A DNA stretch of 23,531 bases from Catajapyx aquilonaris (lineage: Eukaryota): positions 62,001 to 85,531 of the forward strand of contig KZ538297.1 of NCBI GenBank assembly GCA_000934665.2, in the 5' to 3' direction. The notes below the pieces were generated by a model. The model was given only the letters and a program-made list of their open reading frames with translations. It ran no database searches and had not been told where the DNA came from. Made by a program: the position numbers and the translations under genes. Positions 1-23,531 of this stretch are shown in pieces (positions within the stretch are counted from its first letter, which is position 1; the number at the start of each line of letters is the position of its first letter).

Positions 1-999
1 CCAGGGCATGGATCACCACTCCCGCCGCTTTGACCAGCATCCTAACGCCGCTCTCCTCTGCTCATGGAGAGAACCAGCTTCTCTCAGCCAGCCGCAGACT
101 CTCTCGCTTCAACACTGCGCTACCCTGCAATAAAAAGACGGCACACAATAAAAAGCCAGATCCCCCGCCAACAATAGGGCAGGAAACATGCGCCAGTCAT
201 CACATGCACATTGCGAAACAGGGGATGGCATTTACATCCTGTACCGTGATCATTGACTGAAAATATGCGAACGAGTTGCGAATTTTGTGCAGCTCACGAC
301 AATTTTTTTTCCAACGAAAAACAAATTGGACCGATCCATACATGTTGCAGATCCAGCCACTTTAATGCGACCGCAATGTGACGTCACCCAAGTTTTTTGA
401 GGTTAGTGAAAGTAAAAACCTCAATTGCTTGGTCCACTGAATAACACACATGCTATTCTTGTAAATACACCATATGTTCCCCCGACGTCCGCCTGTCCTT
501 TTTTTTCCGTGTTTACGTTTGCCAGGTACCATTTTTTTGAACCGACTGACCGACTTTCAGTGACTCAGTTCATCGGCTAACTTGGCCCCCCTGTTTACCT
601 TCAGGCTCATGGCAATTGGAGCCTAACAGTTGTAATTGCAACTCAACGGTCGTGTTGATTTGCCGACCATTTGGAATCAAGTTGGGGGGGGGAAACAAAA
701 GGGGACCTCGCACCCTGTTTGTTCAAGCCCCGATTCCAATTAAGCCGTGCACTGGCCATACACAGCCAATCAATAAACATGTGAGGTAGAAACAGATTAA
801 AAAGCTCCATATCCGTCAGGCATAATTTTAATATCGCCATCTCACCACCTGAACAGTCATGAAACTATTTGCAGGCATGAGTTACTGTAATTAACACACC
901 TTGAAATACAGTCACCCAAGGTCGCACATCTCACGGAACAATTATTGCGACTTATTCATCGCCACATAATCGCCGAAATATTTCGCACTCATAAATTTA

Positions 1000-1790: not shown

Positions 1791-2700
1791 ACTTGGGGTT
1801 CACACCACAAAAAATTATCTGCGGGTAATTCCAGATTGCGCTAAGCCATTACTTGGTACTGGAATGTTCAGCGGAACATGTCCCTCATGCGACAATGTCA
1901 GATAAAAAAAGGTTGGCGCATTAAAATTCCATAACACTTTCCCCCCCTATTAATGAATGGAATGACATTTTTTTTTTTAAAGAATATTGTTCTAGATATT
2001 ATCATGCTGTGTGTGTGTGTGTGTGGGCCAAGCTTACCCTCGCCCTTGTGTCCCATCTGGAGGTGGTGTGGGCCGCCCCGGGGCCGTTCTAATCCAGCAC
2101 ATCACTCCCGCCTTATTATTTTCCAAGTGTTCGAATAGTGTTCGATGGAATGGAACGGGGGCAGCTAGGGAAGGGGGGGGTTATGACCGCAAGGGGGGAG
2201 AAGAGGGGGGGCCGCCCCTATGTCCGCCCCTGTATCTGCCCCTAGTACCTTCCCGCCCGCCCTTCCTTCTCTTCCTGCGGGAACAGGAGAGAAAGATGCA
2301 GCCTCCTCCTCCCCCTCTCTCTCCTCCAGAGAACCTCCCTCCCACAGGATCACATCGATACATTCCAATACCTGCCGGGTGTCCACCTCAACACGCATGC
2401 GCAACACCGAATCCCGAACGCTGATTGGTCCACCAGCCCACCCACAATATCGATACTACCACATCGATACACACTATGGGAATTTCCCCCCTCCCCCCTT
2501 CCCTACCCCCCCACCCCTAATTTACCAAAAAAAAAAGAAGAAAAAATGCCATCTGGTGAGCATCAGCCGAAGTTGAAGCGATGTTGCCACATTTTGAAAG
2601 CGGGAAGTACGAAAATGTCAAATGTTTTTAATTGCAATTAAAAATTGCGGGGGAGATTAACAATAAGTAGATGCGTTTACGGGGGGGAGGTTGGGCCTAA

Positions 2701-3912
2701 TGTAGCCGCGTCTGGAACGCGTCAGAAAAACCGCGGATTGTAGGTGTCCTGTCAGCTGCAGTTCGAGACGCGGCTACAAACGCGGTCTTGTAAACAGCAA
2801 AACAGCTGGTTTGTATGTCATGTCAAGCTGTGGTTGAATAACAAGACGCGTTCGAGACGCGGTCACAGGGACAGGACACACAAAACCGCGGTTTTGCTGT
2901 TTACAAGACCACGTTTGTAGCCGCGTCTCGAACGCGTCTTGTAATTAAACCACAGCTGAGAGGACACACAAAACCGCGGTTTTGCTGTTTACAAGACCGC
3001 GTTTGTAGCCGCGTCTGGAACGCGTCTTGTATTCAACCGCAGCTGACAGGACACCACAATCCGCGGTTTTTCTGACGCGTTCCAGACGCGGCTACAAACG
3101 CGGTCTTGTAAACAGCAAAACCGCGGTTTTGTGTGTCCTGTCCCTGTGACCGCGTTTGTAGCCGCGTCTCGAACGCGTCTTTGTTATTCAACCAACAGCT
3201 TGACAGGACACACAAAACCGCGGTTTTTCTGTTTACATGACCGCGTTTGTAGCCGCGTCTGGAACGCGTCAGAAAAACCGCGGATTGTGGTGTCCTGTCA
3301 GCTGCGGTTGAATAACAAGACGCGTTCCAGACGCGGCTACAAACATGGTCACAGGGACAGGACACACAAAACCGCGGTTTTGCTGTTTACAAGACCGCGT
3401 TTGCAGCCGCGTCTCGAACGCGTCTTGTTATTAAACCACAGGACACACAAAACCGCGGTTTTGCTGTTTACAAGACCGCGTTTGCAGCCGCGTCTCGAAC
3501 GCGTCTTGTTATTAAACCACAGGACACACAAAACCGCGGTTTTGCTGTTTACAAGACCGCGTTTGTAGCCGCGTCTCGAACGCGTCTTGTTATTAAACCA
3601 CAGGACACACAAAACCGCGGTTTTGCTGTTTACAAGACCGCGTTTGTAGCCGCGTCTCGAACGCGTCTTGTTATTCAACCGCATATGACACAGGACACCA
3701 CAGGTTTTTCTGACGCGTTCGAGACGCGGCTACAAACGCGGTCTTGTAAACAGCATAACCGCTGGTTTGTGTGTCCTGTCAAGCTGTGGGTGAATAACGA
3801 GACGCGTCCGAGACGCGGCTACAAACGCGGTCTTGTAAACAGCAAAACCGCTGGTTTGTATGTCCTGTCAAGCTGCCGTTGAATAACAAGACGCGTTCGA
3901 GACGCGGCTACA
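2701..3912. repeat. CpG-rich foldback/satellite array of ~81-bp palindrome-containing units in mixed orientation
   Basis: Near-identical tandem units start at 3360, 3441, 3522 and 3603 (period 81). Each carries the palindrome aaaaccgcggtttt and an acgcgt site. Inverted copies lie at ~2760-2860, ~3075-3140 and ~3715-3912. The array begins tgtagccgcgtctggaacgcgtc and ends gacgcgttcgagacgcggctaca. Confidence 0.92.
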
Positions 3913-7697: not shown

Positions 7698-10600
7698 CTA
7701 GTGAACATTCCTAGGCGCATACCCATGATGCCCTCCGTAGTGCATGTATCCGCCCCCGTAATCTCCTCTTCCTCTTCCCCTGCCGTACCCCATACCCCGG
7801 ATGGGTCTGCCTTCGAACGGTACAGGAGGAGGACCCATCATGTTCATCGGGGGGATGCGACCAAGGTGAGGAGGAAAACGGTGTGCCATGTGGGGCGGGG
7901 GCATGGGAGGAAGCATCGGAGGGATTGGAGGGGCATTGTCGTGGCCGCGATGAGACGTGTACCTCGGGCGGTTATGCCCAGGATCTGGCATAGGTGTGTG
8001 TTGGTCCCACAGTCGACACAGGGCCTCACCCACACTCGGTTCAAGCTCCTACAAAACACGACGGTATGAACATTTGGATAACCCAAGAAGAGCACACCTT
8101 TGTTACCTGTCCATCTCGACTGATCTGCACTTTCTTGTTCTCATTGTACGGATTCTGGAGATGCCGCGTTAGTTGGAAAGGTAGATTCCCCCTGCGGATC
8201 CACTGCAGCCTGTAAGGGGCACTCATGTTGGGAGAAGCGGACGGCTCGGTGCAGGTTCCTTCAGTCTCCCTGCAGAGATCACGCAGAAGCCGTGCGTAAC
8301 CCTGAAACCAACCCAGATTAACTCCAGAGCGGACGAAAGGTTATTGACGTGACTTACCTGAAAATGGCCACTCCCGTGCACGCTGAACACCAGAAGAATT
8401 ATACGCCTCTCCCGCAGTACACGCTCCATCCTTCTCTCCGTGGCTAACGTAAAGGACCAGTGGCCCTGATCAGCTGACAGGTCGAGGGCGTGCTGGCTGC
8501 TTGCTTTGATCACAAAGTAGCGGGTGTTCAGGTGAAGTTCTTCATCCGGTATCATCATGTCTTCAGGGGGCGGTTCTTCCCCACCTCTGGGCAGATCTCC
8601 TCCGACAGGACGTGGTCTCTGGCCCACGCCTGTCGGTTCCAACAGACCTGACTCTGCCTCCGCATCGGCCAATGTGCGGGAAAGCGTGCTTACAACCTGC
8701 AAACATGTTGGTCGTAACATGAGACGATACTGTTACTAGATTTCAAATTAAAGTGTGAATTACCATGTCGTCAGCAGCAGACCAGGGGCGTTGCGGTGCT
8801 CTCAGGCGTCGCAGCACAAGAGAATGCCACTTTTCACGAAGCGGGACAGCAGCCTGTGCCACCTCAGGTCGCATACGGAACAGAATCCACTCGTCAATCT
8901 TAACCGAAGCGCAGCAGCCGTCTTGGTGTTCCTCCGATTCCGAATCACTATCTGCTAAATTTGCAGCCAAAGTCAACAACTCGTCATGCGTTTTAAAAAT
9001 TCAAGCTCACCCTGCGTGGCGGCAGAAGGTGCATCAAGCTGCTGTGGGTCATGCTCCGTGACAGAGTCCTGTGGAAGCCGCATGGGGCCTCCGAATATGA
9101 AAAGAGTGACGCCAGTGACAACAGTGCACCGTTGCACATGTGCCACGTGACCCACACGGGACAGCTCATCGTATATGACCCACTCGGTCGGGAGGCTCTG
9201 TATGGCACGGGATTGGGCAGCCGCAGCCGTTGCACTGCGATGGGAGTTGCCACCATCCAAAAGTGTTGACGAAGGGTGCAGCCGTACTTTGCTCTCCTTC
9301 CTGTGAAACCGTTAATGAGATTTACACTAATGTAAGTAGCGCAAGTATGCAAACGAACCTTGTACGAAGCTGCATGTGCTCACGGTCAACCCGGACGATG
9401 TTCGGGTACATCCCTGCGCAGAGGGCGGCTTTGACCATGGACCAGTTGTCAGAATTGCGATTGAGGTCCATTATGTCTCCTCCGCCACGGGCACGCACCA
9501 GTCCGGAAGCCCGCAGCTGGCCCAACAGATGGGAACGCATGGACACGATCATCTCCATGGTGGAAGACGACACAAAGTTCTTCTCGCAAAACTGCCTCTC
9601 CCAGCCGTCACTACGGGATTTTTGCCAAGCCTAGGAGGAAAAAAAAGAGGCTCAGACGTCGACGTTGACGTAGACACAACTTAACCAACCTGGAAGACCT
9701 TCAGGAGGGCCATATGATCGCTGAATGCGCCTGCAGAGAACTTCTTCCTCCTAATGTTCACGGTGATCTTCTGGAACGGCTTGTTGGGAAGCAGGAATGG
9801 ATCTCTGTAAGCCACGCAGCTGACGATGGTCAGAACGGGATCCAGGCATCGCAGCACGCAAGCGTACAGCAGTGCCTTTCCAAGCCTGGGCTCCACGGAC
9901 AGCTCCAGAAGATGCATTCCAAGTTCAGTCAGATCCTCCCATGCGTCCAGGGCGTCCATGGTCTTCAGAAGCTGAACCGCGCCACGGGTAACAGCAGACG
10001 GCGGAGGTTCAGGAACCCGTGAGAGGAACTCGGCCACTGGGGTATTTGGCGGTGCCAGCGACTTGCTGTAGAGGCACAGCTCCTGCAGGGGTGTGCGGAG
10101 TATCTCTGCCGTCTGGCGCTCCTGAAATGCGGTGTACCGGAGGCGAGAGAACAGCCGGAAGACAACTCCAGGGCGAAGGCGTCCAGCGCGTCCTGCACGC
10201 TGGATCGCAGAGGCACGGGACAGCCAGCCAGTCTTCAGCATCGACGCGCCACTCAGCGCATCAAACGAGTTCTGCCGAATACATCCACCAATAAGATCCA
10301 ACTTACAATCTAATAATTAAGAACTGACCTCCTTAACCTTTCCCGAATCAATCACAAACACAATGTCATTGATCGTGATGCTTGTCTCTGCGATGTTGGT
10401 GGCCAGCACTATCTTCCTAACCCCTGGCGCTGTGGCCCTGAACACTCTCCGCTGGTCCGACGACTGCATGTGCGAGTGAAGAGTGAACAGAGCGTACTTC
10501 CCCGCCTCCTGCAGCTTCCGGTCTTCCGCCAGAATTCGCTCTCGCAGCTGAACAATCTCATCGTACCCAGGCAGGAACACCAGCACGGCACCTTCTTCCT

Positions 10601-13287
10601 CACCCGAATGTATATTGTGCACGACGGTCATGCAGAGGTCAATGTCAACCCGGTCATCATTAAAGCTCTGGTGGTACAACTCCAGCAGCTCCTTCTCTTC
10701 CGGAGTCAACTCCTTGTCCTCATCAACTAGCTCCTGGGTGCTCGGACACAGGTCAAGGGAACGCCTGGAAACAACCTCATGAGTAATCCACATGTTACGG
10801 AAACGCCAGTTGCACTTACATGTACGCTTGAATGAGCAGCAAAGCCTCCTCTTGGCCTGTATGTTTCGCCCAATCAAGAACCGTCCAGCCGTTGGATGCC
10901 CTGATTGTGGTGCTGGCTCCAAGACTGAGGAGATGCTCCACCGTGGGCAAGTTGCCCCGACCCGCAGCCACCATCAGCCCAGTGGCGGAGGTGCTTCCGT
11001 GCTGGTAGTCCACGGACACATCGTAAGTCAGGATGAGGTGCAGCAGCTGGGAGAAGGCGTCCTCCGAGCCGGTCAGCCAAGCGTCCTCTATGCTGTGGTC
11101 CAGCTGTTCAACCAGCCACGGCTCCAGGTCAGTCTTTTCGGGGACAGGCTCCGAACTCTTACAGGCTCCCAATATCGGCTTTTCCGGTTTGCTACCCTTC
11201 CGTGCAACGATGGGTCGCGGAGGAGCCGCAACATTGGGGGTGCCGCTGGTCCACTCCTCAAGCTGCTTCTGTTGCCGCTTCGTCACCTCAGACTCAGACT
11301 GTGCCTTTTTCATCCCCTCACTCATGTACTTGGTCCTGAACAAAACATGCGATTAGCCAGTTGTCAACACTGCTCAAAACCGGACTTACTCTATGAAGAT
11401 GTCCTCCAAGAACTTCTCCTTCACTGGAAACATCCTGCCGGGTACGGTGACTAGCGGACACCCATGAAAATATCGGGTGAACAAATCAGTGTCCAGCGTT
11501 GCGGACATGAGCACAAGACGCAAGGCTCTGAACTTTGGTAGCTGGTCCCTCAGAACCGAAAGAAGGAAGTCGGCCTGCTTGTTCCGCTCGTGCACCTCGT
11601 CCACCAAAATGTGGGTCATGGACGCCAACACGTTTCCCGCCCCACTGTTGTCGCACCCGCCCATCAGAGTACGCAGCAGGACACCATGAGTGCAATACGT
11701 CAGGAGCGTCCGAGGCGACACGCGACTCTCCAGGCGAATCTGGTAGCCGACAGTGTGACCCACTTTCTCGTCACGTTCCGCAGCAACCCTGTCGGACAAG
11801 CTTAGTGCTGCCAACCTCCGTGGCTGGGTGCAGACAATACGACACGGCCGCTTCTGCTCTTCGCACTGCTCCAATATAAACTGTCCAACCTGCACAAAAC
11901 AACAAGGATAAAAACCGGTGGTCCAAAGTTACGTCAATTACTCACCTGTGTTGTCTTCCCGGACCCAGTTTCGCCCGTAATCATCGTGACAGTGTTTGAA
12001 CCAATCTGCGCCAAAATCTCCTCTCTGAAGGGCCATATCGGAAGCGACTCACGGAACTGCTGAAGATCTAAGTTGCGTCCGCGTTTGGGAGGAATCTGAG
12101 GAACGCCTGAAGTCAATCGGCCCATGACACGACCCGATTCCTTCGCTGACGAGGGCAGAAAAACTTGGGGAGGGCAAAAACCAAGGACAGCATAATTATC
12201 ACAAAATAAATATCAAAAAAATCAGCTGCAATAATCAGGTTATGTCAATGGCTAAACCATAAACCATTAAAAGAGCATCAATACTGATGCCATGGAGCAA
12301 CAATTATTTAAATCTCTTGTAATGCTTTTTTGTAACTTTGTAGCAATAAAAAGCATTAACAAGAGCATAAAAAATGCTGCTGATGTTTCAATGCTCTTGA
12401 AAATGCTTCTTTGTTGTTAAAAAGCATTACAAGAGCATTAAAAGAGTATTACAGTAGTGAAGCGCATTTAATTTTTTTAATGTGCTTGTAATGTTTTTTT
12501 CTTGCTAAAAGGCAACGGAAAAAGCATTACAAGAGCATTAAAAATTGATATTCAATGGGAGACTCCTCAGTGATGCGCTTGTAATGCTTTTCTGATGTTG
12601 AAAAGTAACAAAAACGCTTCATAAGATTAGAAAAGCTGCAATTAAACATTGTGAAGCTCCTTTTCAAGCTTCGGTTTCAATGCATCGGACGTGTACCTTC
12701 TATGCCAAGAGTTCGGTCACGTTCCGTAAGAGGCAGCAAGTCCTGCTTCTCTTTGCTAGTGACCGGAAATTTCTGCAGCAGCGTGCATATCTGATGCCTG
12801 GCTTGTCTAGACAGCTGTATCACCGAGTCCGACTGAACTATAGTCGATCCATCACGCTTGTACACAGTCAGGAAGCGACTTGATCCTTTGCTAAAAAAAC
12901 AGATGGAAAAGTTTAGCAACGATTTCCGCTACGTGAACATCAACGACCAGGAGCGAATCATGCGACGACACCACAACACCAAGCAACTAACTCTACGAGA
13001 ACATGCAATCTGGCCACATTCAGGGGGACTTGCCCACGACTCTTAGACTTGAGCCCCAACTCAGCGGCCAGAGCGTGAATATAAGCCCGCTCTTCAGAGG
13101 TCAGCGACGACGGAAACTCCAGCTCTGAAAGCACAGAATGCGTTAGTCTCAACAACAGTACAACACTAGCGAACAAACCTTTCTTGTCCTCATTGGCCTG
13201 GAAGTCCTTTATGGCCAAATGCAATGCAATCCTCAGCTCCTCACCGATACAAGGCTTCTTCCTCCACTTGCCATTTTTCCGGGGCAT
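7698..13287 (-). CDS. YTHDC2: YTH domain-containing 3'-5' RNA helicase YTHDC2 orthologue (R3H, DExH helicase with ankyrin insert, HA2/OB, YTH), 14 exons, ~1421 aa
   Basis: Hand-spliced exons: 13287-13179, 13124-13034, 12890-12697, 12145-11946, 11889-11390, 11335-10820, 10764-10329, 10271-9690, 9630-9359, 9300-9011, 8954(or 8951)-8764, 8696-8358, 8301-8107, 8048-7698. Total 4266 nt, in frame, ending in TAG. Motifs: R3H ([17 protein letters not shown]), Walker [29 protein letters not shown], ankyrin repeats ([10 protein letters not shown]...NGWTVLDWA), [25 protein letters not shown]2/OB region, YTH (RYFVIKAS...[12 protein letters not shown]...[15 protein letters not shown]). All introns are GT-AG except intron 2 (GC-AG). 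Confidence 0.96.
12265..12600. repeat. Alternating direct/inverted ~20-bp repeat cluster (MITE/foldback-like) in YTHDC2 intron 3
   Basis: aaagcattacaagagcatta at 12421 and 12521, with a variant near 12350. These interleave with the reverse complement cttgtaatg(c/t)tttt near 12316, 12486 and 12578. This intron is 551 bp whereas most others are 54-67 bp. Confidence 0.7.
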
Positions 13288-13829
13288 CTTTTTAAGCTTA
13301 GGGCAACAGCAAAAAAGAACGAGGCCAGCAGTACAATGGTTGTGTGTATATAAATGGCTAACAACACTGTGGGTTAGTCTGATCTGTGTTTTATAGTGTT
13401 TCTACACCGCTTGTGGTTAGTTGAAGTCTATCGGGAATGAGCACCATTAATTACCGGATCAGGAAGACCAGGAATCGTCCACAAAATGACAGGAAAACTG
13501 ATATAGAAACGAAATGGAATTGTTCGAAAAAATAAATAAAAAAAAAGATGGCCGTCTGACCTGTGGGTGCGTTCATAAACCCGAACATGGAGGAATGCAC
13601 ATTTTTTTTCTCTTCAAAACCTGCAATTGTGATGCTGATTTATATTTACATAATATTATTTATGGTATTATGGGGGGAAAAGTACTGAATTATTTTATAC
13701 TATAGCCGGTAAGCTGCCCCCCCCGGAAATTACTGAAAAATGTGGTGCGTTCAGTCGCGATTCGAACAGCATGGCGCCCACGCTCAGATTTCCTTTAGTT
13801 GCTGCTCCGATGGCAGCCACGTCGATTTT

Positions 13830-15449: not shown

Positions 15450-15783
15450 CAGTGGTACTTAAACTTTTTTGCTGTCACACCTCCCCTTGGGAAAAATCTT
15501 ATATATGACCGACACCTCCCACGTTTCCGGCCTTATTGATGAGGACGGAAGTTACTAATACTTTGTTTGTTGCATATAGTTCTCCATCCCTGGGCATTCC
15601 TAGTATTCCGCCTTGTACCGGCGGAGAGCGAAGTGAAAAAATTAACAGGAAACTGATGGTGGTGGCATAAAAATAATAAATAAAATAAATAAAAATAGTT
15701 TTGTAACAGCTCACACGTACCTCCCCTGGAGGCTGCCTACACCTCCCCAGGTGAGGTGTACCCAGAGTTTAAGAACCCGGCTG
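15450..15783. mobile_element. Non-autonomous hAT-type MITE, 334 bp, with 8-bp target-site duplication
   Basis: Perfect direct repeat cattaact at 15442-15449 and 15784-15791. Imperfect TIRs cagtggtacttaaact ... agtttaagaacccggctg. Subterminal acacctccc motifs near 15478, 15512 and 15739. No coding capacity. Confidence 0.8.
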
Positions 15784-15853
15784 CATTAACTGAAACATAA
15801 ATAGAACTTAGGATGGAAATCGCGTATTGCGATCAAATGAACAGCAATATGAC

Positions 15854-16185
15854 AGAGACTACCAAAGTCAACAATCTGTGGCAAAAAAAAAATAATAAAT
15901 CATCAAGGTCAGGCTTCGGACGGCTGATGGGGTTGTACTATTTAATCAAACGGTTAGTTAAGTTACGACCACTTTGAATTATATAATATTATAGATTGCA
16001 ACACATATTTTGTTGTTACGCATGCAATCGGTCGCAATCTCATTGCTCGTCCTCTCATGGCACCAATAATGCATTCAGTGACATTGTTCAAACCGGCTTC
16101 ATGCGAAGGTGAATGGCAAAATGATTGTGATCCATGACTGTTGTTGTGTCGAGGCAGTTTCGTAATGTTTCACTCTTCCTGTTAG
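15854..16185 (+). repeat. Diverged duplicate of 20044-20396 (LRR gene upstream segment)
   Basis: Shared colinear blocks: agagactaccaaagtcaacaa, caggcttcggac, tgttgttacgcat, caatcggtcgcaatct, aatgcattcag, tgaatggcaaaatgattgtgatccatgactgttgt. Confidence 0.92.
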
Positions 16186-16283
16186 GCCTTGAGCGAGAAT
16201 CATACTCGTTGCCGAGAAGCTCTTTGTGAAGACAACAAGCTGCGAAAATGATGAGTTAACAACTTTCCCTTCCTTCCCGGCAG

Positions 16284-16396
16284 GTGACGTCGTGAAGGGA
16301 AAGATCAGCTGCGGCCCGAAGCGTTTGGACAAGAGATCTCCCGAGGTCAAACTCAGCATCGATGATGGACCAGAGGTGGTCTACTTTGTGCACTGA
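16284..16396 (+). pseudogene. Orphan 3'-terminal exon resembling the C-terminus of a type I protein arginine methyltransferase (PRMT3-like)
   Basis: Strong acceptor ctttcccttccttcccggcag, then a phase-1 exon reading (G)DVVKGKISCGPKRLDKRSPEVKLSIDDGPEVVYFVH*, then AATAAA at 16423-16428. The peptide resembles the last beta-strands of PRMT3 from memory. No upstream PRMT exons were found on this strand. Confidence 0.5.
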
Positions 16397-16658
16397 GCAC
16401 TATGCAAAAGAAAATCACCAGCAATAAACCATCATCCCAGGTTTTTTATATATATAAAATAACGGCTCTCTTATTTATCCCGCTGAACTTGCCAAACAAA
16501 TGGGTGTAGATTAATTTATTGATATAAGTACATGGAAGATGAGCCTAATTCGCAATTAAACTGTACCTTAGGTAATGTAGTTGTCACTTAAAATTCTGTA
16601 GGCGTATTACGGGCAAAGGTCGATTGTTCGGCAGACGCTTGTCAGCAATTGCGGCCTT

Positions 16659-19616
16659 TCAGTAATAGAGCAGCCGTTTCTTAAATTCGTGAATGTCCAT
16701 GATGAACATGTGCGTCCGGGCCTCCTCGGGATTGTCTGCCTCGAGGAACTCCAACGCCAACATCGAACCTGTAAGAGCACTTGGCGCTGTACACTGACGG
16801 TTTCCTGAATCGCAAGCCGCGCACTTACTCGGACGGTGCGGCAGGAGTATTCCGGACGAACTCCTCTTCCGGGAGCAGCACGGAGCCAGGAGATGTGTGC
16901 TGCTGGAGGCCTGGCAGAAGCTGCAGTGGAACGGACGCGGCAGGCACTTCTCCAGCTGAGAGACACCGACAACCTGCAGTCAAATGTACTTAGCAATGTT
17001 AACACGTTACGCGCACAATCGAGTACCTGCACGCTTATCTTCCTCGGCATCTCCTCGTGACTCCCCAAGAAGTACTTCCGTCCCCACGTCGCAAGCACTT
17101 CAGGGCTCGCAGCCGTCCAGTACTGCCTCTTGGGAAGGAAACGGATGCTAAAATTCAGATCGGACAACACGCGAGAAGAAAGTTGCGCTTACTGCTTTCT
17201 TCATATTGGCCCTGGGGAGTTTGCTAGAGAAAAGATTAGGCGCCGCCTTCACCACCAGATCTCGTATGTAATCCAGCTTTCCCTTGGGCATGTGCTCCAG
17301 CTCCTGTACGAAGCAGGTGAGAAGCTCCGTGATGTTGCGGTCAATCTCGGAAGTGGTGAACCACGCTGATGGCGTCTTCACGTACGCGACCAGCGCCAGA
17401 ATCCCTTCCTCGTTCGTAATGTTGAACTCCAGTTCGTACCCGACGAGACGCTGCGTGCGGAGGATCCCGAAGTCCAGGAAGGACAGGGCTGTCTGATACG
17501 GCGAAACGGTGAGCCACATTGAAACTAACTTGCAAAAGAGGCGACGCTTACCTGGAACGTCATGAGGAGCAGGTACTTGATGTGCGTGAAGTATCCGACC
17601 TGGTAGTAGTTCAGCACCACGGAGTTCTGGTCGGAGGGGTTGACGTTCCGCAGCCTGCAGATGCTGGTTCCTCGCGGTATTAAAGCCACTACGCCTGAAG
17701 TCTGCAATTAGATTTTTTTGTATGAGCTTCAAACCAAAGCACTTGAAGCAAATGTGCGGAACCTTGGGAACCAACAGCTTCGTGCACTGGAACTGCTCCT
17801 GGACCAGTCCGCTCATCATCACCTTCTGCTCCTCAGTCACCGGCCCAAAATATTCGGTCTTTACGGAAAACTTGCCGTCGAAGCAGCTGGCGAACTTGTC
17901 CAGCGTCAGGTCCTGGAGGGCCAGGACCTTGTCCAGCGGCGTCCAAGTCTGGCGCATGATTAGGCGGAGGAGAATGTTCCTTGTGAAAAAGAGGGTTGTG
18001 AAAATTAAGAAGCGTTTGAATATTAACGAGGCATTTTCACTGCAGGAAACGTACGTCGCCAGATCCTTCTCCAGACCCAACTTCGTGTGGTAGTCCTTCA
18101 GCACGCATTCCTTTGCGACCTGGAACTCCGCCTGAGCCACGCTTTGAGCAAAGTCCCTCAGGTGGAACGACAGGATGGCGACGAGCAACTGCGGGTCACG
18201 CGGAAAAGCCGGTGAAGGCTCGGTATTCAACTTAAATCAAAGCGGGGCTCACCGGCAAACCTACGCAGAACCCTCCGCAGCTGATGAGGAAGGAATCGTC
18301 CGAGGTGAACTGCAAGTACAGGAATTTTACTGCATCATTGGTTGGTTTGGAATGTTGCGAGGCCTCACTTCATCCGTTTTGGTGACTCCGGATATCCGGT
18401 AGCACCGACAGAACAATGGCTTCAGGAATGGAAACGGATCCGGATCATCGTCAGGCGTTCTGAATCTAGACGAAGGAGGAACGTATCTGAAGGCTTTCGT
18501 CAGCATTTCTTCCTGCTGGTCCAACGGAATGGGAGCGACCAGGGCTACCGTCATTCGAGATCCGACGTAGTACGTACTAATGAACTTTGTGGTCGCTTTT
18601 AGCAGGTTCGCATCGTTACCCAAGGACTCCATGTTTCCCCAAGTGAATCTGTGTCTCGGATGGTCACGTTTGGCAGCCGACCTTAAGAGATGCTGCATTT
18701 TAACCTCTTCCGTCGGCTTCTTCAGAACAAACTCTGCCAAAAGTAGTATTCTATATCATTAACATCAGAGGCTAAGAATGACAGTGTGGACACATTTTTT
18801 GCTCACTAAAAATGTACTGTCGAATATGCAAGGAAATAATAATTGAATAATTGAATAATGCGTTCTCTAAATTTCCGTACCGCGACTAACAATCCTTCTC
18901 TCTCCCGTCACGTATACGTATACGTAGTACATGTGAAGCACATGTACATGTGCACAAGTACATGTGAAGTACATGTGAAGCATCGGCGCTCGAAGCATGT
19001 CGACTACACGATCAAGCGCTTCCTCAAGTCCTTGGGGTTCCACTTTAAAATAATAATTAACGAATTCGTACTCCGTGTTTGCATTGCTTGAGCCTCCATT
19101 TGCCTGCAATTTTTGTTACGACTTGGAGTTAATAGCCGATTTTTAATTATTTTCAAGCGGCCGACAGCTCACCTTCAAGAAACGATCCAGCCCATCAGTT
19201 TTCGGATACGCAGCGCTTCCCATGAACACAAGATGTTCGACCAAGTGAGCCAGACCGGGATAGTCGTCCGGATCATAAAAGTTGCCGGCCCGAATGGTTA
19301 TGCTCATTACAGCCAACTGCGCAAGAAAATATAAGTAATTAGTGAACGATCCGCACGTATTTTTTAGTGCGGTTTGCTATACCGGATTACTAAAGCTTTC
19401 GCACAAGGACACTGCTGCCTCGCAAGGTAGAATTAGATTCCTGCAACAAATTTTTGAAATTTGTGATTGACATTGCGCTACGTTTAATTATAGAGAATTA
19501 TTATTCTGCCGAATACTTCTTTACCTGTATTTGTTGTCGTCGTAAATTGATAGTACGGGGGACTTGTAATAGCCAGGTCTCCTCCCTAAAAATGGTTTGT
19601 CATCATCCACACCCAT
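16659..19616 (-). CDS. Divergent, internally shortened nardilysin/insulysin-like M16A zinc metallopeptidase, 13 exons, ~698 aa
   Basis: Hand-spliced exons: 19616-19525, 19440-19383, 19316-19173, 19103-18881, 18733-18369, 18309-18253, 18188-18055, 17979-17763, 17701-17552, 17492-17193, 17128-17027, 16973-16829, 16768-16659. Total 2097 nt with no internal stop and all GT-AG introns. Motifs: YDPDDYPGLAHLVEHLVFMGS (HxxEH), NGGSSNANT, EALDR, HPRHRFTWGNMESL, NSVVLNYYQVG, ILRTQRLVGY, RKISVQVVG, DIHEFKKRL. FMGS, FxWGN and SVxVVG resemble nardilysin more than IDE. Boundaries of exons 6, 7 and 11 are less certain. AATAAA on the minus strand at 16515-16520. Confidence 0.85.
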
Positions 19617-19945
19617 ATTTGTAATGAGATGTACTTAAGAAAAAAAATTTGTCCGCTAATTTTGATTAAGTTAATTCTAGAAATGATAAATCCATGGTTT
19701 CCAATGGTGCACATTGTTGGAAGTTGACATTTTTGTTGAGGTCAATTTTCAGCTTCGATTGTTGGGATGCAGTGCGTCTGGTACATGGCACCATCAACTT
19801 ATATCCCTTTTTATCTCCCCTATATATGGACCACTCGATTTTATTCAAACAAACGGAAACTTTCACCAAAATCCCTAGTTTACGAATGGCAAACTTTTTT
19901 TTCATTCTCATCCCAGTGTCCTGCCTGTTTGGATTATTTCTATAA

Positions 19946-19991
19946 GACAACGTCAAAGAGCTTAAAAGAGTATAAGCTCTTTGGACAACGT
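19946..19991. mobile_element. 30-bp DNA-transposon remnant/excision footprint (TIR ends only) flanked by 8-bp TSD
   Basis: gacaacgt (19946-19953) + caaagagctta-aaagagta-taagctctttg (19954-19983, perfect 11-bp inverted ends) + gacaacgt (19984-19991). The paralogous segment at 23231 has a single gacaacgt and no insert. Confidence 0.8.
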
Positions 19992-20396
19992 CATGAATAT
20001 TAATTGCACGACGCACGGAAATAATTGTTATAAAGTGTTGCTAAGAGACTACCAAAGTCAACAACAATCTGTTGCAAAAAAAAAAATTATCACGGGCAGG
20101 CTTCGGACTGATGGGCTTGTAGAGTGTTTCATCTTATGTAAGTTTATAGTTATCCACCTTATTTATATTAAACGGAACTGAATATTATTATATAATTTTA
20201 TATCGCAACACATTCTGTTGTTACGCATATACAATCGGTCGCAATCTTATGACCCCTATCACGGCACCAAAATGCATTCAGGGACATTGTTGAAACCGGT
20301 TTCATGCGAAAATGAATGGCAAAATGATTGTGATCCATGACTGTTGTGTACATAGAGACAGTTTTATTGTAAAGTCTTACTCTTCATATGTTATAG
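19984..20396 (+). promoter_or_regulatory. Putative promoter/5'-UTR exon and 5'-UTR intron (20138-20396) of the LRR gene; reference copy of a locally triplicated segment
   Basis: Donor-like gtaagt at 20138 and acceptor-like ttactcttcatatgttatag ending at 20396, 92 nt before the ATG. Donor-like sites recur in both paralogous copies, and the acceptor-like site recurs in the 15854 copy. Confidence 0.5.
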
Positions 20397-20488
20397 ATTC
20401 AAGTTTGAAGGGCCATCATAGTCACAAAAGATTTGCTCTTCAAGATGTTCAAGCCACATTGGCGTGAATTGACATACTCTGTGGAGCC

Positions 20489-22027
20489 ATGCCACGCCCA
20501 TTTGCAATTCCCAGTCTGAAACGACTCAGCCTCGTGTCCTTCGTGGATATGATGGTCCGATGCTGCCAGACACCAGCACAGTCCAGGCGACACAACGAGC
20601 AGATCGAAGCTCTGTCCAGATCCATCCCATGCACCCTGGCCGACGAGTACATGGAGAAGCTCATGTGGCTTAATTGGTCGGGAATGGTCCGTATAGTCAA
20701 CATTCGAGACGCCATGTGTCCCTGGTGCACCCACCTCCAGCTGGAGTCGTCCAAAATGGAACTGAAGGTGGCCAGGAACCTGGAAATACTGACGCACCTC
20801 ACCTCCCTGACGGTGAAGTGGCCGAACACCAAATGCATGATTAAGAAGGTGGTCAAGCGCCTGCCCCATCTCCAGAGGCTGAAGTGTCTCCTACTGGAAT
20901 GGAATAAGGTCACGGACGGCATGAAGCTCGTTGAGAAGGTGGTGGATCACTGCCCCCTTTTGGAAGAGCTGTCGTTCCAGTGGGGGATGTCCCCCATTCA
21001 GTCGATGACACTGGGGAGCTGCCAGAAACTGAGGAAAGTGTGTGTCCAGTACTTCGGTGATTCTGTGAGAGATGTTCTGGCCATCCTGCGGACCGTCCCT
21101 CAGCTGGACACATTGGCGTTCTTGGGGGGCAGCACGAAAATTAATTATATGACGGCGTCATTCCTCAAAGCTTGCCATGGGCCGCATCGCCTCCGGAGAC
21201 TGGAGGTCACTTGTGATGAAGGGGTTGGAATAAATGACCTGGAGTATCTGGCGCGTCACTTCCCGGAACTGCAGGGGTTGCATATGAACCTGGAAGAATG
21301 CGACCTGTCCCCAATCAACAGGATGGTCCACCTGAAGGAACTGGGCTTGTCAGAATGCATCACCTCGGAGCAGGTGTCGGTACTGGATGGCGCCGTGTTC
21401 GCTCGTCTTGAGAGCCTTCGCCTAGATTGGGTAGACGTGCAAAAGTTACTTGGATTAATCAACGGCCCACTACAAGGCATGCAGGAGTTGAGTGTGAGGG
21501 AGGGGTGCTCACAGGTCGACCTCGTTCAGATCAGCAACCTGTTCCCGAATTTGAGCAGAATTTACCTGCATGACTGCCAGTTGACCAGCCTCGTGCGAAA
21601 TGATGGCAAACCTTTCAGTCATCTAGAGAGGCTTGTGATCGAGGATAAATACGACCGTCTGGGTCTACACCATCTGGCTTACCTGCTCTCGCACTCCTGT
21701 GATCTGGAGTTTCTGTCCATAAGGGGCTCCCGCCTGGATGACCCCTGTGTCCACTCCCTGCTTCGGCGTAACCCCCTGATCAAGCTGAAAGAGTTACACT
21801 TGTCCTGCGACCGCCTGACCCCATCTGTCACATCAGTGGTCTTCACCTACTTCGGGGAAGACCTGGAGTCGGTGCGGTTTGAAGGTGAGCAGATGAATGA
21901 TCTACCGGTGGGTTTCCTCAATGCGATGCAGGAGAAGGTGAAGCCCTACCATTTCGACATGTGGATCGGGAACCAGGTGCACACCATTCTCATGCCAAAC
22001 GGACAGATGCGCCTTGATTATTATTAG
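20489..22027 (+). CDS. Leucine-rich-repeat (RNI/FBXL-like) protein, 512 aa, uninterrupted ORF, with N-terminal BC-box-like motif; probable E3 ligase substrate receptor
   Basis: 1539-bp GC-rich ORF in an AT-rich background. Recurrent LxxLxL repeats (HLTSLTV, HLQRLKC, PLLEELSF, QKLRKVCV, PQLDTLAF, RLRRLEV, PELQGLHM, HLKELGL, RLESLRL, PNLSRIYL, HLERLVI, DLEFLSI, KLKELHL). N-terminal PSLKRLSLVSF. AATAAA at 22103 and 22183. Confidence 0.85.
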   Translation: MPRPFAIPSLKRLSLVSFVDMMVRCCQTPAQSRRHNEQIEALSRSIPCTLADEYMEKLMWLNWSGMVRIVNIRDAMCPWCTHLQLESSKMELKVARNLEILTHLTSLTVKWPNTKCMIKKVVKRLPHLQRLKCLLLEWNKVTDGMKLVEKVVDHCPLLEELSFQWGMSPIQSMTLGSCQKLRKVCVQYFGDSVRDVLAILRTVPQLDTLAFLGGSTKINYMTASFLKACHGPHRLRRLEVTCDEGVGINDLEYLARHFPELQGLHMNLEECDLSPINRMVHLKELGLSECITSEQVSVLDGAVFARLESLRLDWVDVQKLLGLINGPLQGMQELSVREGCSQVDLVQISNLFPNLSRIYLHDCQLTSLVRNDGKPFSHLERLVIEDKYDRLGLHHLAYLLSHSCDLEFLSIRGSRLDDPCVHSLLRRNPLIKLKELHLSCDRLTPSVTSVVFTYFGEDLESVRFEGEQMNDLPVGFLNAMQEKVKPYHFDMWIGNQVHTILMPNGQMRLDYY

Positions 22028-22720: not shown

Positions 22721-23230
22721 AGCCTGTCAGCATTTTGGTGTCAGTTCAAAGACGAATGTTTAAAGTTGTTTCAGATAAACGAAAACAATCATATTCTGCC
22801 CTTATTTGCAAACAACATATATGAGGGAGAATGAAAGGTATGTGGCACGAATCTTCACTACAGAAACTCAAACTGACATGCACATGTCAAAGGGTAAGTC
22901 TTTCTCTAATTTTAGGCACAGTCAGCATATACACTTTGGTGCACTTATCCCAATAATGGGACACTAATTATTTTTCCATGCCACTGCAGAAAAGAGAGGC
23001 TGAAAATTCAATGGCTGACTCCGGCTTCTTTCACTTCCTCGATGTTGCTCAAGAGTGTTGACAGGTGCTTCTTCATTGCAATTACGAAGGCTGTGCGGCG
23101 CAATCAATTTATTAATTTTTGAATTTTATATTCCTCACTCGACAATGACAACATAAAATTAGAATGGTGAGATAAAAACTGGTTCAATCACTTGAAATCA
23201 AAGGGCTATGAAAAATTGCATTGTTTCAAA

Positions 23231-23433
23231 GACAACGTCATGAATACTATTGCACGACGCACGGAAATAATTGTTACAAAGTGTTGCTAAGAGACTACCA
23301 AAGTCAACAACCTATTTGTTGCAAAAAAAAAAAAAAAAAATTATCAAGGGCAGGCTTCGGACTGATGGGCTTGTAGTAGGCTATTTCATCTTAATCAAAC
23401 GGTAAGTTTAGTTACATATATCCACTTTGAATT
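23231..23433 (+). repeat. Third copy of the LRR gene upstream segment (matches 19984-~20160), ending abruptly near 23433
   Basis: gacaacgtcatgaata...tgcacgacgcacggaaataattgtta...aaagtgttgctaagagactaccaaagtcaacaa...gggcaggcttcggactgatgggcttgtag is near-identical to 19984-20122. Confidence 0.92.
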
Positions 23434-23531
23434 GGTAATTATCTAGTTTAGGGGGCCGCGGCCTACAGCGTTCGCGATGGTACTTACAGCTCTACTGAGT
23501 GCATAGGGTCCTAGTGCTGACTTTCCCGAGT

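Follow-up and report, generated by a model that had tools for sequence, protein, structure and literature searches.

A probable M16A zinc peptidase paralogue lacking the middle block of the family fold in Catajapyx aquilonaris

M16 peptidases are defined by a closed four-domain chamber, and a gene of Catajapyx aquilonaris raises the question of what remains of such an enzyme when the middle of the chain is missing and the reading frame is still open. The gene lies on the minus strand at 19616-16659 of a 23,531-nucleotide (nt) stretch of contig KZ538297.1 (GenBank assembly GCA_000934665.2, positions 62,001 to 85,531 of the forward strand); this whole stretch is referred to as the window, and all positions are those of the window. 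It is probably a real, expressed and partly constrained M16A paralogue that is missing a middle block, and at least its 3' half is transcribed. A natural, spliced member of the family with its frame preserved and all catalytic residues retained, in which half of domain 3 is gone along with the hinge and domain 2, would be notable, and no mention of a natural three-domain or truncated M16A was found in a 2025 review (PMC12731061) or in a limited further literature search. If the reading is true, the gene offers a natural test of what catalysis, as opposed to substrate selection, requires of the clamshell, and of how a single-chain peptidasome reverts towards a two-domain subunit. If the gene is instead a decaying duplicate, it is an ordinary partial gene duplication that matters little beyond genome annotation.

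The gene model was rebuilt from stop-to-stop frames and the minus-strand sequence. It has 13 exons with 2097 coding nt, giving 698 codons with zero internal stops, and all 12 introns are of the GT-AG type, with lengths of 53-147 nt. This agrees with an earlier note on this DNA, made from the sequence alone, which had described 13 exons splicing to a stop-free frame of about 698 amino acids (aa). Exon 1 (19525..19616; aa 1-30) begins with an ATG at 19616-19614 and has an in-frame stop just upstream; a hydrophobic signal-like start is not evident in it by eye.

Domain-library scans were done exon by exon, and the spliced protein was compared with local profiles. The pitrilysin-type profile (963 positions) was built from 25 full-length bacterial four-domain M16A proteins, each of at least 940 aa, taken from E. 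coli ptrA and from a 301-genome sample searched with an M16A middle-domain model (31 genomes matching). Two stretches of the spliced protein align to it: aa 18-261 on positions 40-267 (170.6 bits, E 2.4e-54), with aa 18 in exon 1 as the first aligned residue and exons 1, 2 and 3 joined without a gap, and aa 298-561 on positions 607-868 (29.8 bits, E 8.4e-12). Profile positions ~268-606 have no counterpart in the spliced protein, and 14 of the 19 conserved columns of that stretch are gaps. Judged from the alignment, this gap is far beyond chance. The rear half scored 31.5 bits against a shuffle maximum of -0.8 (200 shuffles, 103 of which returned a score); exons 6-8 alone reached 12.3 bits, exon 8 alone 6.5 bits (positions 668-736), and exons 9-10 alone 12.6 bits on positions 757-868, collinear with exons 6-8. 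The last 137 residues gave no significant match to the profile.

The absence of domain 2 had been proposed in the earlier note, and it stands. In the ten exons scanned (exon 6 was outside the scan), PF16187 (Peptidase_M16_M) was unmatched at E values up to 10; this domain spans 399-674 in PtrA, and the window protein aligns only after ~607. A six-frame scan of the window (940 fragments) revealed no M16A piece beyond the gene's own exons, and the only match to positions 268-606 in the 23.5-kb window was at chance level (E 9.9), inside a helicase gene. The large gap that the note had placed between 17980 and 18450 was likewise recovered, and no full-length alignment without large gaps was obtained.

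The missing block of ~340 positions takes in domain 2 and the hinge and reaches ~85 residues into domain 3. IDE has its four domains at 43-285, 286-515, 542-768 and 769-1016, with the hinge at 516-541 and an exosite in domain 2, according to PMC10604886; in IDE numbering the gap covers ~288-626, which takes out domain 2 in full, the hinge and the opening part of domain 3. A confident predicted structure of a protein 99 % identical to PtrA (predicted local distance difference test score (pLDDT) 91.3, predicted template modelling score (pTM) 0.87) served as the reference fold. On this model the alignment resumes within strand 601-609, and the domain-3 remnant retains strand 601-609, helices 613-696, strand 699-706 and helix 710-724. 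From domain 3, the strands 524-529, 532-537, 547-555 and 592-598 are gone, as are the two helices at 563-589, and domain 4 is aligned as far as helix 848-862.

In the gene, the junction falls at intron 5 (18310..18368), which is only 59 nt long and has phase-0 exon ends on both sides. Exon 5 (18369..18733; aa 173-294) carries the distal Glu, the remainder of domain 1 and a ~36-residue tail that could not be assigned. Exon 6 (18253..18309; aa 295-313) corresponds to the domain-3 strand at reference 601-609, exon 7 (18055..18188; aa 314-357) to domain-3 helices, and exon 8 (17763..17979; aa 358-430) covers the end of domain 3 and continues into domain 4. The distance between exons 5 and 7 is only 180 nt, against the ~1 kb of coding sequence that the missing part would need.

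The earlier note had the protein jump from the peptide YRISGVTKTDE, taken as the start of domain 2, to domain-3-like sequence, and then skip a further 40-45 residues before FQVAKE. The large gap is there, and the 19-aa exon 6 intervenes before the peptide LLVAILSF, which falls on helix 613-626 rather than on an earlier helix. The further skip was not found, exons 6 and 7 being contiguous on positions 607-667; their placement depends on the alignment continuing into exon 8, as the -2.1 bits of exons 6-7 by themselves are not significant. Nor is the product a three-domain protein as had been proposed: domains 1 and 4 are retained along with a mostly helical remnant of domain 3, and the loss is a single one of ~340 positions. 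Neither the start of domain 2 nor the hinge fits the exon-5 tail (~aa 262-297) better than shuffles, with -3.6 bits at the boundary of domains 1 and 2 and -2.6 bits at the hinge and start of domain 3, both within the shuffle range. One multiple alignment put the tail on the hinge motif, where the segment scored -2.6 bits, again in the shuffle range. "Start of domain 2" is at most a possible description of the tail. An in-register fusion of domains 2 and 3 was also considered, and a weak profile-profile alignment (E 6.8e-4) suggests an offset of ~55 residues at the junction.

Splicing was followed in sequencing runs, of which X1, X2 and X3 are three DNA runs of one sample and X5 is a public run of another sample. 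X5 contig 25 skips introns 11 and 12, and X5 contig 26 skips introns 7 and 8, in each case precisely at the modelled exon ends; intron 10 is bridged as well, by the loose end that contig 25 has at 17128, which carries the final 10 nt of exon 10. These spliced joints are absent from X1-X3. Because the intron skips are exact and none occurs in the DNA runs, X5 is taken to be RNA-derived, a processed copy being less likely. The 3' half of the gene is thus spliced as modelled. Contig 26 covers exon 7 at 18055-18173, ending 15 nt before the exon 7 start, so the joins of exon 5 to 6 and 6 to 7, and exons 1-6, are without RNA support. X5 cover is zero over 17224-17535 and 18264-19700, and the run says nothing about those parts. 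The family alignment continues gap-free across junctions 1-4 and 9, which supports them, and the same holds more weakly for junction 6.

The rear exons can be placed as follows. Exon 9 (17552..17701; aa 431-480) encodes domain-4 strands and has an in-frame 3-nt deletion allele at ~17688. Exon 10 (17193..17492; aa 481-580) continues domain 4 and contains R492 (17457-17459) and Y499 (17436-17438). It is followed by exon 11 (17027..17128; aa 581-614), by exon 12 (16829..16973; aa 615-662), which is rich in Cys and Ser and without a family match, and by exon 13 (16659..16768; aa 663-698), which ends in a TGA stop at 16661-16659. Exon 12 is open in each of the three minus-strand frames (16828-16979); its coding frame is fixed only by spliced contig 25 and by a GC content at third codon positions (GC3) of 0.77.

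The catalytic residues of the family are present in both halves of the protein. Exon 2 (19383..19440; aa 31-50) encodes the first strands of domain 1, and exon 3 (19173..19316; aa 51-98) encodes the zinc motif HLVEH (aa 74-78; 19247-19233), which falls on the invariant reference columns H88, E91 and H92. Exon 4 (18881..19103) encodes aa 99-172 and ends with the first base of the codon for the distal Glu, aa 173; intron 4 interrupts this codon (G at 18881, AG at 18733-18732). The distal Glu and a Glu seven residues earlier fall on the invariant columns E169 and E162. In all, domain 1 retains 33 of its 39 columns with a conservation of at least 90 %, including these H, E, H, E and E. In domain 4, R492, a T, a G and Y499 fall on the invariant columns R792, T793, G798 and Y799; L stands in place of the invariant Q796. 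The 2025 review describes the roles of HXXEH, the Arg/Tyr pair and the distal Glu, and states that the pair completes the active site in almost all members (PMC12731061). The earlier note's description of an intact HLVEH and of a downstream Glu in IVSRE split by intron 4 therefore holds.

Its further claim that the active site is intact holds for the zinc ligands and the Arg/Tyr pair; in the window allele, however, an expansion of 18 residues lies by the catalytic Glu. The 3' part of exon 4 is a coding microsatellite, with tandem repeats at 18910-18980, and the in-frame expansion at 18912..18967 is polymorphic when haplotypes are compared in the DNA runs. In the short haplotype these 56 nt are replaced by the 2 nt AT, a net change of -54 nt or -18 aa, and the corresponding joint 18911->18968 is found in X1, X2 and X3 at a depth of 24-49, about half depth. 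The 18 codons of the microsatellite account for a spacing from His to distal Glu of 99 residues in the window allele instead of the canonical 81 of the short haplotype. The inserted residues lie between the helix preceding the Glu pair and the Glu pair itself. Domain 1 of the short allele aligns to the profile free of gaps and scores 194.4 bits, compared with 170.6 for the window allele.

By sequence, the gene is an M16A-type zinc peptidase. Pfam Peptidase_M16 was matched by exon 3 (E 3.2e-11) and exon 4 (E 5.4e-08, positions 60-100), Peptidase_M16_C by exon 5 (E 3.1e-05, positions 8-65), and the domain-4 family PqqF-like_C_4 by exon 10 (E 9.5e-4, under the curated cut-off); exons 7, 8, 9, 11, 12 and 13 had no M16 family match in the Pfam scan. 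Exons 3, 4 and 5 were placed by NCBIfam on positions 67-112, 114-156 and 175-256 of the 961 of pitrilysin. Among solved structures, exon 3 matched protease III (E 2.6e-07), PqqF (E 3.4e-07) and IDE (E 4.4e-06), and overall the exon scores for pitrilysin, PqqF and IDE are much the same. M16A members have four domains in one chain of ~100 kDa, whereas this chain has 698 aa.

Both pitrilysin (PtrA, 962 aa, PDB 1q2l) and IDE (1019 aa) share with the window protein the HXXEH motif and both Glu residues, the distal one and that seven positions earlier, as well as the same Arg/Tyr pair and the same order of domain-3 helices and domain-4 elements. HXXEH is located at 88 in PtrA and at 108 in IDE (PMC12731061, Table 1), and the spacing from His to distal Glu is 81 residues in both (88..169 and 108..189), as in the short allele. 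Domain 1 can be aligned to these enzymes over its full length, without gaps for the short allele. Unlike them, the window protein is without ~340 positions (domain 2, where the exosite sits, and the hinge, together with the N-terminal part of domain 3), its rear half is far more diverged, and its last ~137 residues, including the Cys/Ser-rich exon 12, are unmatched. Nardilysin (NRDC) belongs to the same subfamily. The acidic stretch, an insertion in domain 1, is a hallmark of nardilysin; domain 1 of the window protein is without an insertion except for the polymorphic microsatellite. Its slightly better score on pitrilysin than on IDE is a lead only for the link to nardilysin that the earlier note had proposed, nardilysin being the clade closer to the prokaryotic M16A according to PMC8774118.

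Relatives of the gene were sought exon by exon. Exon 5 gave 0 matches to solved structures at E 0.01, and in a word-index protein collection it gave 103 candidates, none of which scored; exon 3 gave 2 candidates there, again with none scored. Exon 10 had 0 matches at E 0.001 among 1.84 billion representatives and, among solved structures at E values up to 10, a single unrelated match; exon 8 had none. The collections contain no close relative of the host, so these blank searches are uninformative on lineage specificity.

The two halves of the gene differ in their conservation, the front being conserved and the rear eroded. In the DNA sample, 16600-19700 is highly polymorphic, with 92 differences in 3.1 kb and two haplotype classes of similar depth; at most of the listed sites it is the non-window haplotype that appears in the spliced X5 contigs. 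Of the 92 differences, 40 were listed: 13 non-coding, 9 synonymous and ~16 non-synonymous, with a ratio of non-synonymous to synonymous polymorphism (pN/pS) near 0.5; three adjacent changes were counted as a single Lys to Ser replacement and not as a stop. The exonic insertions and deletions (indels) in the DNA runs are of 3 nt and 54 nt, and four non-coding ones are of 1 nt each. GC3 is well above GC content at second positions (GC2) in 12 of 13 exons, the exception being exon 2 (0.45 versus 0.47), and it also exceeds the intron GC of 0.41; GC2 is 0.38-0.39. Taken together, these observations indicate that the frame and domain 1 are under selection, and that the rear half is relaxed or changed in role. 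The word "streamlined" in the earlier note implied adaptation, which does not suit a rear half that looks relaxed, not optimised.

Two of the alternatives to a missing block would leave a normal or complete enzyme. Assembly collapse at 18050-18400, or missed exons, might hide a normal four-domain gene, and exons 5-7 are indeed not spanned by an RNA contig. The earlier note had called for a check of raw reads across this interval: 18000-18310 and 18308-18680 are covered by contigs built from raw DNA reads, free of loose ends in the three runs, and X1-X3 contain 0 records placed only partly on the window and 0 that continue into unlike sequence. The DNA runs may be the source reads of the assembly, in which case an assembler slip is excluded, yet the sampling is not independent. 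Given also that the space between exons 5 and 7 is far too short, and that the search for positions 268-606 in the window returned a single chance-level fragment, an artefact is very unlikely. The gene could otherwise be a compact, complete four-domain M16A of ~700-800 aa of the PqqF kind. The NCBIfam PqqF model (TIGR02110) has 697 positions, exon 5 matches it better (E 8.2e-07) than pitrilysin (E 2.2e-04), and Serratia PqqF has 773 aa in four domains (PMC12731061, Table 1). PqqF (~770 aa, PDB 5cio) is thus similar in total length and in domain 1, but its four domains are complete. A local profile of 13 PqqF proteins above the curated cut-off, from 401 genomes, matches only aa 32-259 of the window protein at 126.3 bits, less than the 170.6 bits of the pitrilysin-type profile; the rear half, which aligns to pitrilysin-type positions 607-868, finds nothing on it, and the per-exon TIGR02110 scores of 45.2, 23.9 and 28.1 bits are far under the curated cut-off of 320. 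With the PqqF profile silent behind aa 259, this explanation was rejected and is scarcely credible.

Several observations weigh against a constrained paralogue. The joins of exons 5, 6 and 7 rest on splice signals, phase and weak homology continuity, with exons 1-6 outside the RNA contigs; the window allele has 18 repeat-encoded residues between its zinc ligands; and no orthologue was found in the exon-wise searches, in collections where the host has no close relative. In the listed subset of 40 of the 92 differences, synonymous and non-synonymous changes number 4 and ~13 in the rear half, compared with 5 and 3 in the front half, a contrast that does not reach significance (Fisher p 0.087). 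Domain 4 keeps just 5 of its 12 conserved columns, and the score of region 607-868 relative to region 40-267 is 0.15-0.17 here, compared with 0.42-0.62 in all 14 divergent intact M16A proteins used for calibration. A 1-nt deletion at 17063 in exon 11, seen only in X5 contig 25, would end the protein after residue 610; it lies in a base run at a depth of 4.5 and may be an error. The repeat expansion, the rear-half changes, the lost domain-4 columns, the low score ratio and this possible frameshift, together with the low depth of the RNA contigs (2.2-4.5) and the statement in the 2025 review that the M16 family requires both halves for full function (PMC12731061), would suit a decaying duplicate, that is a partial or internally deleted M16A copy that is transcribed, has acquired no stop yet and makes no useful protein. 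However, neutral drift to ~0.11 bit per residue should have yielded stops and broken splice sites, and here all 698 codons are open and all 12 introns intact. The strong periodicity of GC content over codon positions, the exonic indels in multiples of three in the DNA runs, the conserved columns of domain 1 and the retained Arg/Tyr pair also argue against decay, which we regard as rather unlikely. Somewhat less doubtful is that the gene is a chimera, with exons 1-5 of one M16A paralogue fused to exons 6-13 of another; such an origin is compatible both with a constrained paralogue and with a decaying duplicate. GC3 rises from 0.53 (155/294) in exons 1-5 to 0.79 (321/405) in exons 6-13 (p 2e-13); the rise is located at codons ~286-301, where the junction lies, and GC at first positions (GC1) and GC2 are equal between the halves; exon 6 with its 19 codons is already at 0.79. 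Both junction ends are in phase 0, and the halves differ strongly in family divergence and in polymorphism pattern. The route could have been a deletion or an unequal exchange between phase-0 introns. Intron GC also rises between the halves, from 0.36 to 0.46, so the step may in part be a local boundary of mutation or biased conversion, and a simple internal deletion with unequal constraint could give some of these contrasts. The genomic position of the gene offers a further hint of such an origin, as it lies on the opposite strand within an array of leucine-rich repeat (LRR) genes, at a place where the repeat unit measures 4187 nt instead of ~3250-3350 nt; this spacing and strand suggest a relocated copy.

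Returning to the constrained paralogue, one block of ~340 residues would have been removed between two phase-0 exon ends, leaving a complete domain 1, a ~36-residue linker, a mostly helical remnant of domain 3 and a domain 4 that bears the Arg/Tyr pair. Such a protein would presumably still bind zinc and be able to cleave peptides. By analogy with the family mechanism, a single chain would be unable to enclose its substrate as a clamshell, and with domain 2 the exosite that anchors larger substrates would be gone. The earlier note had expected an altered or open chamber, which fits the sequence in so far as the usual four-domain clamshell would be impossible from one chain without domain 2. 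If active, the protein may be an open peptidase with an altered substrate range or may depend on a partner, and selection would now act mainly on domain 1 and on the open frame.

It is conceivable, though distinctly unlikely, that the gene represents an M16A cut down to its active-site parts, domain 1 and domain 4, perhaps by fusion of paralogues, and that it works by M16B-like pairing or as an open peptidase. M16B enzymes are two-domain subunits of ~50 kDa that pair into a clamshell, as in the Bacillus halodurans homodimer (PMC12731061). Such a subunit has an N-type domain with HXXEH and a C-type domain with Arg and Tyr, which is the content that is intact in the window protein, and by this analogy self-pairing could be imagined. 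Pairing with itself or with a canonical paralogue might rebuild a chamber, and a chamber-less form might reach larger or folded substrates. The window chain differs from an M16B subunit in its 698 aa, in the domain-3 remnant between its domains and in a rear that is of the M16A domain-3/4 type.

The tandem LRR array that surrounds the gene has copies at 12420-12940, 15780-16300, 19960-20480 and 23206-23531. An upstream module of ~350-400 nt is 94-98 % identical between some copies, and the modules are spaced ~3.25-3.35 kb apart, except for the 4187 nt around the peptidase gene. An LRR open reading frame (ORF) on the plus strand at 20468-22027 encodes 519 aa in a single exon and matches Pfam LRR_At5g56370 (E 6.5e-08). 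The module copy at 15850-16200 has no comparable ORF behind it; the peptidase gene stands there on the other strand. Elsewhere in the window, a YTHDC2-type RNA helicase gene occupies ~8200-13400 of the minus strand, with R3H at 12958-13401, a helicase core, and YTH at 8223-8732. Its best matches are 57-66 % identical and come from across Metazoa, including insects, a barnacle, amphioxus, molluscs and vertebrates; as no protein in the collection exceeds 66 % identity to the core, the host animal has no close relative there. At 2700-3912, dense tandem repeats of 79-81 nt occur together with long inverted arms of up to 113 nt that are 98 % complementary, and this block looks like a satellite or a nest of foldback elements.

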